DNA of 59,079 bases. Origin: Rhodothermales bacterium. Its GTDB lineage: Bacteria > Bacteroidota > Rhodothermia > Rhodothermales > UBA10348. The notes beneath the pieces are model-generated. The model did no database searches and was not told the DNA's origin. It was given only the letters and a program-made list of their open reading frames with translations. Both the position numbers and the translations under genes were made by a program. The stretch is taken from assembly GCA_030830105.1 (NCBI GenBank), contig JAURNP010000112.1, positions 1 to 59,079 on the forward strand. The letters run 5' to 3'. Shown piece after piece: positions 47,348-59,079 of this stretch; position 1 is the first letter of the stretch, and the number at the start of each line of letters is the position of its first letter.

Positions 47348-47618
47348 GGACAAAAAAATTTTGTGTAACGAATAGCGCCCTCGCGCTGGAGCAAAGGCCT
47401 CTTCAAGATACGTGTTTAAACTGAACGGGGGCTGCTTAACACTGTCAAATTTCGGCCCAGGAAGGGCAGAAAAGCCGTTTTCTGGTAGCGCTTCCAAATT
47501 CTTCACAGGACAGATGGTTGAATAGGAGGAACGGAGCCCCCTACCATTGTCGGTAAATCCGAGTCAGAAACGGGGTCGACGCAAGGTCGCCCTCGCGAGG
47601 ATTTTCAGAACCAACAGC

Positions 47619-47795
47619 ATGCATCGAACGATGTCCCAGCACTTCGCTTTTTCGCTAGTCGCTTCCCGGATCGGGAATGGCGTGGCCGTGGCTGCTGCTG
47701 ATGTACTGTCTCCTTCGATTGCAGTGGTTGACCGACTTGTGGCAGGCCTTGTGGTCCTGCTGTCCCTTCTAATCAGTGTGCTAATTCTCACCTGA
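47619..47795 (+). promoter_or_regulatory. candidate ILV-rich leader ORF upstream of the ilv-leu operon
   Basis: ATG-started part of the listed ORF 47547..47795. The C-terminus is ...DRLVAGLVVLLSLLISVLILT*, so 14 of the last 19 codons are Leu/Val/Ile. The stop lies 79 nt before the ilvD ATG. Confidence 0.4.
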
Positions 47796-55956: not shown

Positions 55957-57255
55957 ATGGGACAGACCATTACCCAGAAGATTCTTGCCCAGCATGCCGG
56001 GCGCGACAGAGTCGCGCCCGGAGACAACATCTGGGTCGATGTCGACACCTTGATGACGCACGATGTGTGCGGTCCACCGACCATCGGCATTTTTCAGCGC
56101 GAGTTTGGGGAAGATGCCAACGTGTGGGATCCGGACAAGCTGGTCATCCTGCCCGACCACTACATTTTCACCGAGGACCCTCACGCTCGTCGCAATATCG
56201 AGATCTTGCGAGATTTTGCCGCGAAGCACAAGCTGAAGCACTATTTCGATGTCGGAACGGCCCGCTACAAGGGGGTCTGTCACGTTGCCCTGGCCGAAGA
56301 GGGATTCAATCGTCCCGGGACCGTGCTATTCGGCACGGATAGCCACTCGTGCACATCAGGCGCCTTCGGCATGTTCTCAACCGGTGTGGGCAACACCGAT
56401 GCGGCCCTGATCATGGGGACTGGCAAGATCTGGGTGAAGGTACCGGAGACCATGCGTTTTGTGTTCGAAGGCAAGTTGCCGCCCTGGCTTATGGCCAAGG
56501 ACCTGATCCTGAGCGTGATCGGGGACATCGGGTTCGAAGGTGGGACTTACCGCGCGCTCGAGTTCGATGGTGAAGCCGTATTCGACCTGTCCATGGAAGA
56601 GCGCATGACGCTCACCAACATGGCCATCGAAGCCGGTGGAAAGAATGGCATTATCGCGGCGGACCAGAAGACGGTCGACTATGTCGAAGCACGAACGGAT
56701 GCTCCGTACGAAATGGTTTCCTCCGACTCTGACGCCCGCTACTTGTTCGAGAAAGTCTACGATGTGAGCACCATGGAGCCGGTCGTAGCCAAGCCGCATA
56801 GACCGGACAACCGGGCTGCGGTCTCGGAAGTAGCCGGTACCAAACTGGATCGTGCCTACATCGGTAGTTGCACGGGCGGCAAGTACGAGGACTTCCTTGC
56901 GGCAGCACAGATTCTGGAGGGCAACAGGGTACAGGTGGATACTTTCGTGGTGCCCGCCAGTACCGAGGTGTCAAAGCAATTACGGGAGCAGACCCTGGGC
57001 GGCAAGACGCTCTGGCAGGTCTTTCTGGATGCGGGATGCAAGATGGGCCATGCCTCTTGCGGTGCATGCCTGGGAGGTCCGGTGGATACTTTCGGTCGTA
57101 CCCATGGCACGGAGGTCGTCATTTCCACCACCAATAGGAATTTCCCCGGCAGAATGGGGTCGAAGCAATCGGCCGTGTACCTGGCGTCGCCTCTGACCGT
57201 GGCTGCGTCGGCCTTGCACGGTGAAATAACTGATCCGCGAACTGTTCTGGTGTAG
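55957..57255 (+). CDS. leuC: 3-isopropylmalate dehydratase large subunit (short, ~430-aa type)
   Basis: MGQTITQKILAQHAG, GTDSHSCTSGAFG, GSCTGG and CGACLGG Fe-S ligand regions. Confidence 0.9.
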   Translation: MGQTITQKILAQHAGRDRVAPGDNIWVDVDTLMTHDVCGPPTIGIFQREFGEDANVWDPDKLVILPDHYIFTEDPHARRNIEILRDFAAKHKLKHYFDVGTARYKGVCHVALAEEGFNRPGTVLFGTDSHSCTSGAFGMFSTGVGNTDAALIMGTGKIWVKVPETMRFVFEGKLPPWLMAKDLILSVIGDIGFEGGTYRALEFDGEAVFDLSMEERMTLTNMAIEAGGKNGIIAADQKTVDYVEARTDAPYEMVSSDSDARYLFEKVYDVSTMEPVVAKPHRPDNRAAVSEVAGTKLDRAYIGSCTGGKYEDFLAAAQILEGNRVQVDTFVVPASTEVSKQLREQTLGGKTLWQVFLDAGCKMGHASCGACLGGPVDTFGRTHGTEVVISTTNRNFPGRMGSKQSAVYLASPLTVAASALHGEITDPRTVLV

Positions 57256-57318
57256 CCGTGAATGTGCGAGCTTTCAGGACGCGCCCATTGCACTGAAATC
57301 CTGCACCCTTTTTCTGGC

Positions 57319-57384
57319 AGCATGAAAGCCTTTCTTCATCAGCATGAAAGCCTTCTTCCAATAGCATGAAAAACCGTATTGAAG
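57319..57384 (+). repeat. three tandem 22-nt units, each beginning AGCATGAAA; the third carries the leuD start
   Basis: agcatgaaagcctttcttcatc / agcatgaaagccttcttccaat / agcatgaaaaaccgtattgaag. The ATGs at 57322, 57344 and 57366 lie in three different frames. Confidence 0.9.
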
Positions 57385-57926
57385 GAAAAGCCTACGTACT
57401 CGGGGACTCGATCGACACGGATCAGATCATCCCGGCCGCGCACCTGGTCTACAGCATGACGGAGCCGGACGAACGTCGCATGTACGGGCGATATGCCTGC
57501 ACCGGGGTGCCCAATGAGCAGGCCGGTCTACCTGATGGAGGAATGCCTCTGACCGATCCCGAGGCCTGGACCAGCGAATTCAAGGTGGTCATCGCTGGAT
57601 CCAACTTCGGATGTGGCTCCTCCCGCGAGCACGCCCCTTTTGCCCTTCAGGAGGCAGGCATCGAGGCGGTGGTAGCCACTTCTTACGCCCGGATTTTCTA
57701 CCGCAATTCCGTGGATGGAGGCTTCCTGGTCCCATTTGAATCACGCGAACGCCTGGTTGAGCAAATTCGGACGGGGGATGACATTGTAATCGACGTTCCA
57801 GCAGGCACGCTGACCCAAATGCCATCGGGCGACGTATTCCTTCTCAACCCACTTGGAGACGTAGCGGATATCCTGCGTGCTGGCAACGTGTTCGAGTATG
57901 CCCGGCAGGCGGGCTTCATCAGCTGA
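57366..57926 (+). CDS. leuD: 3-isopropylmalate dehydratase small subunit
   Basis: GSNFGCGSSREHA motif. 186 aa. Follows leuC. Confidence 0.9.
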   Translation: MKNRIEGKAYVLGDSIDTDQIIPAAHLVYSMTEPDERRMYGRYACTGVPNEQAGLPDGGMPLTDPEAWTSEFKVVIAGSNFGCGSSREHAPFALQEAGIEAVVATSYARIFYRNSVDGGFLVPFESRERLVEQIRTGDDIVIDVPAGTLTQMPSGDVFLLNPLGDVADILRAGNVFEYARQAGFIS

Positions 57927-57974
57927 CTGGATGTGTTCAATCTTGCGGCCGTTGCGATCGTTTCCCTCTGAATC

Positions 57975-58328
57975 ATGCCTGTTCCAAAGCCGATAGTCTT
58001 GACCCGCGCTGACGAGATGTTGCTCGTATGCATTTTCGTGCTGGATGGTGATGCCTTCAGCACAACCATCCGTCAGGAAATGATATCCCGGGCCCGCAAG
58101 AAGATTTCCGTCGGGAGCCTGTGGGTCGCTCTGGACCAGTTGGCTGAGCGGGGTCTGTTAGAGAAGGAAAGCCGTAAGAATCCAGAGCGAAAGGGAGGGC
58201 GACCGCGAGTCTACTATTCGGTGACCTCCCTGGGGCGCAAGTCATTGAAGAAGACACGGGAGCTCGATGCCCGTCTCTGGCGCCGAGTTCAAGATCCGAT
58301 GGAAAACACCAAAAACATCAAGGAATGA
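57975..58328 (+). CDS. PadR family transcriptional regulator
   Basis: Winged-helix pattern ...SVGSLWVALDQLAERGLLEKE...GRPRVYYSVTSLGRKSL. 117 aa. Confidence 0.8.
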   Translation: MPVPKPIVLTRADEMLLVCIFVLDGDAFSTTIRQEMISRARKKISVGSLWVALDQLAERGLLEKESRKNPERKGGRPRVYYSVTSLGRKSLKKTRELDARLWRRVQDPMENTKNIKE

Positions 58329-58375
58329 CCCTTTTGGGTTGACCCGTTTCGAGAAGAGCCGTATGTTCGCCGCCC

Positions 58376-58477
58376 ATGTTATCAATCAAGACCACATCGC
58401 TAACACTGCGTCGCCGCGTCCGACGAGGCCGAACGGGGATTCGATCCGGGTACGGTGCACGTACGTCTGCCATGTAA
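58376..58477 (+). promoter_or_regulatory. candidate Arg-rich leader ORF upstream of argG
   Basis: ATG...TAA encodes MLSIKTTSLTLRRRVRRGRTGIRSGYGARTSAM. Codons 58409..58432 are cgt cgc cgc gtc cga cga ggc cga (6 Arg of 8). Confidence 0.4.
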
Positions 58478-58509
58478 CGTCGTCTTTTCAAGCGACTGAT
58501 TGAATGCCA

Positions 58510-58541
58510 GCGTCGACCCGTACGGGATCGGCGCTTTTTTT
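58510..58541 (+). terminator. intrinsic terminator (hairpin plus T7)
   Basis: GCGTCGACCC-gtac-GGGaTCGGCGC (10 bp including one G-U pair, one bulged A) followed by TTTTTTT at 58535..58541. Confidence 0.7.
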
Positions 58542-58618
58542 ATGGCCCAAGCTTTTACAAAATGAACGATTCGCGGCCGACAAAGACTTCGGCCCAAGTC
58601 ATCAACCTCCAACCCATC

Positions 58619-59079
58619 ATGTCCATCATCGTCGCCTTCAGTGGCGGACTCGATACATCCTTTTGTGTACCGTTCCTTCGGGAAACACATGGGTGCGATA
58701 TCCACACAGTAACCGTAGATACAGGCGGGATCAGCAAGCAGGAAGCCCGTGACATAGCCGCCCGTGCAGAGGAGCTCGGTGCAGCCAGTCATCACATGGT
58801 CGACGCCCGATCCGATATGTTTGAGCGATCGCTACAGTTCCTGATCAAGGGAAATGTGCTCCGCGGTGATCTGTATCCTCTGTGTGTTGGTCCTGATCGC
58901 GTCGTGCAAGCGGCATCCCTGGTGGATAAGGCTCGTGAGCTGGGAGTTACGACCGTGGCGCATGGCTCCACGGGCGCGGGTAACGACCAGATCCGGTTCG
59001 ATATTGCACTTTCGGTCCTGGGAGGAGACCTCGAGATTCTCACGCCCATCCGGGAAGGTAATTTGAGTCGTAAGTTCAC
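58619..59079 (+). CDS. argG: argininosuccinate synthase (3' end cut by window edge)
   Basis: Own translation, not in the ORF track: MSIIVAFSGGLDTSFCVPFL...VTTVAHGSTGAGNDQIRFDIALSVL... contains the AFSGGLDTS PP-loop and the AHG.TG.GNDQ.RF motif. An in-frame ATG also exists at 58562. This replaces the minus-strand ORFs 58400..58795 and 58792..59079. Confidence 0.9.
   Translation, partial: MSIIVAFSGGLDTSFCVPFLRETHGCDIHTVTVDTGGISKQEARDIAARAEELGAASHHMVDARSDMFERSLQFLIKGNVLRGDLYPLCVGPDRVVQAASLVDKARELGVTTVAHGSTGAGNDQIRFDIALSVLGGDLEILTPIREGNLSRKF

Follow-up and report, generated by a model that had tools for sequence, protein, structure and literature searches.

A candidate leader-peptide attenuator for arginine upstream of argG in the Rhodothermales

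How the arginine biosynthesis gene argG is controlled is the question raised by a contig from a Rhodothermales bacterium (JAURNP010000112.1, assembly GCA_030830105.1). The whole stretch of 59,079 nucleotides that was analysed is referred to here as the window. Arginine is the standard example of an amino acid under repressor (ArgR) control and not under attenuation, and to our knowledge no leader-peptide attenuator for arginine has been described. Between a padR-like gene and argG, the window contains a short open reading frame (ORF) dense in Arg codons, followed by an intrinsic terminator. On the basis of its sequence, this element is probably a ribosome-mediated (leader-peptide) transcription attenuator for arginine, with a probability of roughly 0.8. 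The reading is carried by the anatomy of the element, its conservation beside arginine genes, its codon bias, and the family-wide position and above-chance strength of an alternative pairing.

Anatomy and conservation of the leader

The leader ORF has its own start codon between a promoter-like site and argG, clustered Arg codons and an intrinsic terminator downstream, as an attenuator would (Table 1). It contains eight Arg codons in total, six of which lie within eight consecutive codons. Among the 896 short ORFs (10-60 codons, six frames) of the window, six Arg in eight codons are reached only by the leader ORF and its antisense mirror, and five in eight by 17 ORFs; in any frame, the window holds five eight-codon stretches with six Arg. 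By itself the leader ORF is unusual without being decisive; it is where it lies and how it is conserved that set it apart from chance.

The promoter-like site is the sole sigma-70-like match within 57000-59079, and its TATGTT box ends 8 nt before the leader ATG. No such site was found between the terminator and argG (58542-58618). From the sequence, 58339-58367 would serve as the promoter. A TAT..T box at 8-9 nt from the start codon is kept in the related loci L081, L001, L082, L083 and L084 (invariant T34, A35, T36 and T39), the start codon of the L001 leader being GTG. As the box ends so close to the start codon, the sequences suggest that the mRNA of the six closest leaders is leaderless or nearly so.

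The terminator stem-loop has 10 pairs with one bulged A and a GUAC loop (-15.5 kcal/mol), and begins 32 nt past the leader stop. An earlier sequence-only reading of this DNA had called it the only hairpin with a T7 tract in the window, and a scan of both strands bore this out. The T7 run is the only one on the + strand, and no other hairpin of -10 kcal/mol or better, on either strand, has an uninterrupted T tract directly after it. The remaining matches to a hairpin and T tract have interrupted T tails and are mostly intragenic. In relatives the terminator is conserved with one-sided and compensatory changes, columns 141/159 and 142/158 varying on both sides. The positions assigned in that reading to the padR stop, leader ORF, Arg run, stem-loop and T7 were all reproduced.

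The lineage of the window is Rhodothermales-like, the best matches being Bacteroidetes and Rhodothermales metagenome-assembled genomes (MAGs). Genome and metagenome collections searched with the argG fragment yielded 160 loci, and look-ups of related proteins added more. A protein search with the fragment returned mostly truncated entries; eight contigs gave six new leaders, one duplicate (L161, the same as L082) and the leaderless L167. The argG of the window is 81-89% identical to that of L001 and L081, and the full-length homologues contain both Arginosuc_synth domains. As in these homologues, the start of argG is ATG 58619, whose frame is shared by an ATG at 58562.

The alignment of orthologous spacers, which the sequence-only reading had proposed as a check, found the Arg-run ORF and terminator to be conserved: the leader unit precedes argG in 17 of 19 distinct close-relative loci with a Rhodothermales-type argG. 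The unit consists of a promoter-like site (TTGAC, 17 nt, TAT..T), an ORF of 23-36 codons that includes an Arg run, then a GC-rich hairpin and its T tract, and finally argG. Homologous leader ORFs of this length occur in 19 loci besides the window, with runs of 3-7 Arg ahead of argG or of GNAT-argG-argC. The terminator is present in all 20 leaders, its stem beginning 23-44 nt after the leader stop. Runs from close loci include LRRRFRRVR, RLRRRVRRL, LRRRIRRVRRL, RVRRPRRRL, VRRPRRPR, TRRVVRRRRM and SRRRRRG. Conservation of the peptide is confined to the run, and the flanks vary in sequence and length even among close relatives.

A blind scan of 168 loci (L001-L168), on both strands, was made for a short ORF with at least 4 Arg in 7 codons and a strong terminator. 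Of its 21 matches, 18 immediately precede argG or GNAT-argG on the strand of argG, and the remainder are three marginal hairpins of the minus strand. The gene upstream of the unit is padR in one group, lies on the opposite strand in L164 and L168, and is unrelated in L165 and L166. The T tract is followed by the next start codon after 0-107 nt, and in L004 and L162 after only 0-2 nt. With the argG ATG this close to the T tract, a separate promoter would not fit between them in these two loci, and argG would be reached only by read-through.

A tblastn search found no argR-like gene in the 59-kb window or beside any of 23 leader-bearing loci. By comparison, argR lies directly upstream of GNAT-argG in 32 of 146 other loci (0 of 23 with a leader; Fisher p = 0.008), where it occupies exactly the position of the leader. 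A check for ARG boxes had also been proposed. The 18-bp palindrome TNTGAATWWWWATTCANW, an E. coli consensus from which that of the Bacteroidota may differ, had no match in the whole window with up to 3 mismatches.

Codon choice and alternative pairing

The run codons of the 20 leaders are CGA (55), CGC (32), CGT (22), CGG (3) and AGA (1), and CGA, CGC and CGT account for 109 of the 113. In the downstream genes of the same loci, CGG and AGR (AGA or AGG) make up 33% of Arg codons and CGA 7%. In the account of PMC3711424, CGU, CGC and CGA are decoded by the inosine-containing tRNA-Arg(ICG), and CGG needs another tRNA. From its codons, the Arg run looks tuned to this one tRNA species. The near-exclusive use of CGA, CGC and CGT is predicted by a charging sensor, and not by a peptide-level function or by GC drift. 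The effect is large, though the relatedness of the sequences inflates formal p-values.

A strong preference for CGA is confined to the Rhodothermales and to 'Bacterium HR20'. Decoding of CGA by I:A wobble is slow, and the leu leader of E. coli uses rare CUA codons. By analogy with that leader, slow decoding of CGA would sharpen a stalling sensor.

The alternative pairing involves a proposed antiterminator 5' strand, termed segment 2, which begins 13 nt downstream of the final Arg codon, in the window as in relatives. Of the 20 leaders, 19 are more complementary to the 5' arm and loop of the terminator than dinucleotide shuffles are (mean z -1.6), most strongly HR20 (z -4.8) and a Rhodothermus MAG (-4.1). 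The complementary segment begins a median of 13 nt past the last Arg codon (5-28 nt in 19 of the 20), which places it just beyond the front edge of a stalled ribosome. A co-transcriptional snapshot was also modelled, in which the 5' arm has emerged and the 3' arm has not yet. In 16 of 20 leaders the 5' arm is then more often paired upstream when the ribosome is in the run than when it is at the stop (Wilcoxon p = 0.001). With a ribosome modelled on the last Arg codon of the window and the 3' arm untranscribed, segment 2 is the minimum free energy (MFE) partner of the 5' arm.

Within segment 2, UACGG is conserved in five of the six closest leaders, although the frame in which it is read differs in L084. 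An RNAalifold consensus of these six draws a pairing between the Arg run and segment 2, which could form when no ribosome is there. In the Balneolaceae MAG L053 the switch is complete even at equilibrium, the probability of the terminator being at most 0.14 with a stalled ribosome versus 0.78 with the ribosome at the stop.

The mutually exclusive folds of the sequence-only reading were drawn from repeats that are indeed present, CGATCC 58442-47 with GGATCG 58525-30, CGTACG 58460-65 with 58519-24, and GTACGG at 58450 and 58520. Pairings with the 3' arm of the terminator do exist, with a mean z of -0.67 that makes them weaker evidence than the 5'-arm pairing (-1.6). In these models the best-supported alternative pairing across the family is that of the segment about 13 nt past the Arg run with the terminator 5' arm.

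Table 1. Features of the leader region and its flanking genes; positions are those of the window.
Feature	Position	Strand	Basis or description
padR-like ORF	57975-58328	+	PadR domain detected
Promoter-like site, TTGACC, 17 nt spacer, TATGTT	58339-58344, 58362-58367	+	sigma-70-like match
Leader ORF, 33 codons, MLSIKTTSLTLRRRVRRGRTGIRSGYGARTSAM then stop	58376-58477	+	ATG start; ORF list and translation
Arg run, CGT CGC CGC gtc CGA CGA ggc CGA	58409-58432	+	6 Arg in 8 codons, all CGH (CGA, CGC or CGT)
Proposed antiterminator 5' strand (segment 2), CCGGGUACGGUGCA	58446-58459	+	predicted to pair with 58510-58521 or with the Arg-run region
Small hairpin just past the leader stop, GUCGUCuuuucaaGCGAC	58480-58498	+	in predicted MFE fold
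Intrinsic terminator, stem-loop GCGUCGACCCguacGGGaUCGGCGC with T7	58510-58534, T7 58535-58541	+	hairpin and T-tract scan
argG (argininosuccinate synthase), N-terminal 153 codons, runs off the window	58619-59079	+	proposed controlled gene

Proposed mechanism and rival explanations

In the proposed mechanism, transcription would start at the promoter just past padR, at about the leader ATG, and a ribosome would translate the 33-codon leader as RNA polymerase advances to the terminator. With ample charging of Arg-tRNA(ICG), the ribosome would clear the run CGT CGC CGC. CGA CGA. CGA. Segment 2 (58446-58459) would then be covered by the passing ribosome or re-paired with the Arg-run region, so that the hairpin and T7 could form and transcription would terminate before argG. 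Under a shortage of charged Arg-tRNA, the ribosome would stall in the run with its front edge just short of 58446. The freed segment 2 would pair with the emerging 5' arm of the terminator, allowing read-through into argG and the genes behind it, which in relatives are a 353-aa ORF and argC.

Several observations weigh against this mechanism. In the window itself, pairing of segment 2 with the terminator 5' arm is no better than in shuffles (RNAduplex -15.8 kcal/mol, z = -0.46). The sequence-only reading had proposed folding with a masked ribosome footprint; when the window was folded at equilibrium, the terminator persisted whichever ribosome state was modelled (P at least 0.88), and for this reason no thermodynamic switch is claimed there. 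It is the co-transcriptional snapshot and the family-wide statistics that back the predicted alternative pairing of the window. The '1:2' hairpin, between the Arg run and segment 2, is no stronger than expected by chance when all 20 leaders are taken together (mean z -0.33). Covariation in the helix between segment 2 and the terminator 5' arm (2:3) is thin, four of six aligned sequences keeping the helix with one compensatory change.

Further points concern the ORF and its distribution. The invariant CGACGAG block could reflect a constraint at the RNA level instead of codon choice. Two close relatives, L007 and L167, keep padR-argG without any leader, and argR could lie elsewhere in leader-bearing genomes. 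The homologues are phylogenetically related, so that the counts are not independent and the p-values overstate independence. A test of the openness of the leader frame was uninformative, as the other frames and the antisense are mostly stop-free at such GC content.

Of the rival explanations, the one that survives best retains a translated leader in control of the terminator and alters the signal, which would be slowing or arrest by nascent poly-arginine, or free arginine in the exit tunnel, and not tRNA charging. Such a leader would have the same anatomy, and the basic run is the sole conserved feature of the peptide. Nascent-peptide sensors exist for arginine (fungal AAP) and ornithine (SpeFL). 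Arrest peptides, however, have conserved specific sequences, and here all but the Arg run varies over 23-36 residues. The preference for CGA, CGC and CGT over CGG and AGR is expected for sensing of a single tRNA, not for a signal at the peptide level. Arrest at high arginine would moreover give read-through, the wrong direction for a biosynthetic gene. An arrest peptide is consequently considered improbable.

It is less probable still that the element is conserved as a structured RNA, whether a leader that binds a protein or ligand or a small RNA whose end lies at the terminator, with the CGACG-type repeats as RNA motifs and the ORF incidental. In its favour, CGACGAGnCCGA is invariant at the nucleotide level, third positions included, in the six closest leaders; this block could have a role at the RNA level in addition to coding. 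UACGG is likewise kept in L084 despite the different reading frame, and termination would leave a separate RNA of about 165 nt. Yet the fold of the whole window leader is not more stable than that of shuffled sequences (z = -0.54), and Rfam searches with permissive thresholds matched nothing in this region of the window or in the leaders of six further loci. The best Rfam score was far under its gathering threshold (malK-III, 17 bits versus 50). The distant lineages L053 and L019 (HR20) differ in nucleotides and keep the in-frame Arg codons, the start codon and the placement of the stop. A small RNA derived from an attenuator would be compatible with leader-peptide attenuation and is no true rival.

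Least likely of all is that the hairpin and T7 merely terminate the ilv-leu-padR transcript, with argG under its own promoter and the Arg-rich ORF an off-frame by-product of GC-rich DNA. In its favour, leuCD-padR precedes the terminator in the same orientation, both in the window and in its closest relatives, stop-free frames are common and 17 short ORFs reach five Arg in eight. Against it, the unit persists beside argG behind unrelated or opposite-strand genes and in low-GC genomes, the spacing of 8-9 nt between the conserved TAT..T box and the start codon is fixed, no promoter-like site was found in 58542-58618, and argG adjoins the T tract in L004 and L162. Two parts of this explanation, the chance Arg-rich ORF and the end of the ilv-leu-padR transcript, had been raised as caveats in the sequence-only reading, and the conservation of the unit speaks against both. 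Its proposal of an Arg-responsive attenuator, by contrast, is supported by the argG-linked conservation and by the low-GC examples from distant Bacteroidota described below.

Known elements were also considered for the region. The known RNA families (Trp, His, Leu, Thr and Phe leaders, T-box and riboswitches) were rejected on the absence of Rfam matches in the window and six loci. A sequence at 58436, GGGGATTCGATCC, resembled a T-arm; a tRNA or tmRNA fragment was rejected, as ARAGORN found none in the window and Rfam gave no match. The antisense of the leader (58318-58491, - strand) is an Arg-rich ORF too (…RPRRTRRR…), because CGN repeats mirror into NCG repeats. It is an artefact to be heeded in scans for Arg runs, and the orientation of the promoter-like site and terminator favours the + strand. 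The hairpin just after or overlapping the leader stop is kept as a structure in L081, L001 and L082, with differing sequence.

Wider distribution and relation to known systems

Beyond the close relatives, similar Arg leaders are found ahead of GNAT-argG-argC operons in a Balneolaceae MAG, HR20, a Bacteroidales MAG and Saprospiraceae. The leader of the Balneolaceae MAG (L053) includes MMISRSSYHLRTSNRRRRFRRRF, with NRRRRFRRRF and the run codons CGC CGT CGC CGC ttt CGC CGT CGT. That of HR20 (L019), MTSMLRRRSLRRRP, contains six CGA codons, and the genes behind it are GNAT, argG, argC and a carbamoyltransferase (OTCase). The Bacteroidales MAG (L017, 42% GC) has two leader/terminator units in tandem before GNAT-argG (841-1097). 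Their peptides are MAHTRTYRRRRKLFKQQ (...YRRRRK...) and MISMKQNIRRRRFYQ (ending NIRRRRFYQ), and in each unit a GGCGG(G) segment directly past the stop matches the CCCGCC arm of the terminator. In the low-GC genomes among these, the Arg runs are not attributable to GC content.

A variant form is found in the Saprospiraceae, where the terminator overlaps the end of the leader (L034, 2189-2323; L036, about 2053-2155). The last Arg codon lies in the 5' arm of the hairpin, and the stop codon in or beside the loop. Here a stalled ribosome would block the hairpin directly, and a separate antiterminator would be unneeded. On a 35%-GC contig (L155, 1644-1810), a short ORF ending in SSPRRFRRSPNRQ was observed upstream of a GNAT-like gene and argG. 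It has AGA and AGG instead of CGH codons and a weak terminator-like hairpin, and is tentatively regarded as a further variant of the Arg leader.

With somewhat more confidence than doubt, these leaders are taken as an undescribed and widespread class of Arg-sensing attenuators in the Rhodothermales and other Bacteroidota. The class would replace an operon-linked ArgR and read the charging of the single isoacceptor tRNA-Arg(ICG) through runs of CGA, CGC and CGT. It would favour CGA and be leaderless or nearly so in the clade of the window, and would sometimes occur in tandem (L017) or fused to the terminator (Saprospiraceae).

The regulated response aside, the layout matches the classical trp-, his- and leu-type attenuator in its leader ORF, cognate codons and intrinsic terminator, and probably in the antiterminator pairing, which exceeds shuffles at the family level and not in the window itself. 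Shared with the enterobacterial trp, his, leu, thr, ilv and pheA attenuators are a short leader ORF with clustered codons for the end product, an intrinsic terminator before the first structural gene, and, as predicted, a segment that could pair with the terminator 5' arm just past the reach of a stalled ribosome. The antiterminator of the trp attenuator is no more stable than its terminator, as is also the case here, and the use of a poorly decoded codon is shared with the leu leader. Unlike these systems, the amino acid sensed here is arginine, the host belongs to the Rhodothermales (Bacteroidota), and there is no relationship by sequence or Rfam. Leaders of the window type also lack a Shine-Dalgarno sequence, the start codon lying 8-9 nt from the -10-like box.

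Leaders of this kind have been reported within the same phylum-level group. In Flavobacterium psychrophilum, an ilvE leader with eight Ile and a hisG leader with HHHH were reported (PMC9723704 and its supplement). For the Flavobacteria a trp leader RNA was also reported and leaders rich in aromatic residues were predicted in the supplement, with none for arginine (PMC9723704). They share short ORFs rich in the cognate residue within structured 5' regions of amino-acid operons; in contrast to the leaders described here, they concern Trp, Ile and His, and are unrelated to them in sequence.

A full-text literature search found no leader attenuator for arginine biosynthesis, although a mention outside the searched literature is possible. 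The only Arg-codon-sensing leader ORF that it found is orf34, upstream of speF. In this Salmonella leader, low arginine causes the ribosome to pause at consecutive Arg codons, switching the structure of the mRNA (PMC6386406). As proposed for argG, pausing at Arg codons in an upstream ORF selects between alternative structures. The two differ in that orf34 has two Arg codons in a conserved 34-codon peptide, controls a polyamine gene and not an arginine operon, and acts through Rho-dependent termination, access to the ribosome-binding site and RNase G stability, not through an intrinsic terminator.

Control by ArgR/AhrC at ARG boxes shares the target genes and the direction expected of the leader, expression being off under ample arginine, and in many Bacteroidota argR lies upstream of GNAT-argG where the leader sits here. 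It differs in being a DNA-binding protein that senses free arginine. T-box leaders likewise sense tRNA charging through a choice between terminator and antiterminator; they differ in binding uncharged tRNA directly without need of translation, and no T-box match was found. In contrast to the AAP, SpeFL and TnaC arrest sensors, the Arg leaders have no conserved specific peptide outside the Arg run.

Other features of the locus and its relatives were noted. A PadR-family gene lies directly upstream of argG in the subgroup of the window, and also in the leaderless L007 and L167. In relatives, argG is followed by a conserved 353-aa ORF (L083, 3709-4770; L161, 3236-4297) and then by argC. This ORF has no NCBIfam match and a sub-threshold match to the DUF1611 P-loop, and would be expected downstream of argG in the window too. 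In L161 (2001-3049), argG was called in two pieces of 134 aa and 177 aa behind a leader identical to that of L082, probably through a frameshift or an assembly error. Elsewhere in the window, an ORF very rich in Leu, Val and Ile (47547-47795, + strand, ending in DRLVAGLVVLLSLLISVLILT) lies ahead of ilvD (47875) in an ilvD-ilvC-leuB-leuA-leuCD cluster. No clear hairpin with a T tract follows it, and it could be an isoleucine-leucine-valine (ILV)-type leader peptide or a small membrane protein.

If leader-peptide attenuation at argG is confirmed, arginine would join the short list of amino acids that are sensed through translation of a leader. It would also explain the regulation of arginine genes in lineages of Bacteroidota without an operon-linked argR. 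The leaders would offer a natural system for how codon choice within the decoding set of one tRNA (CGA versus CGC and CGT) tunes a stalling sensor. For annotation they would supply a simple rule, a short ORF with a CGH run and a terminator upstream of argG or GNAT-argG, for an element that is missed by current pipelines and by Rfam.

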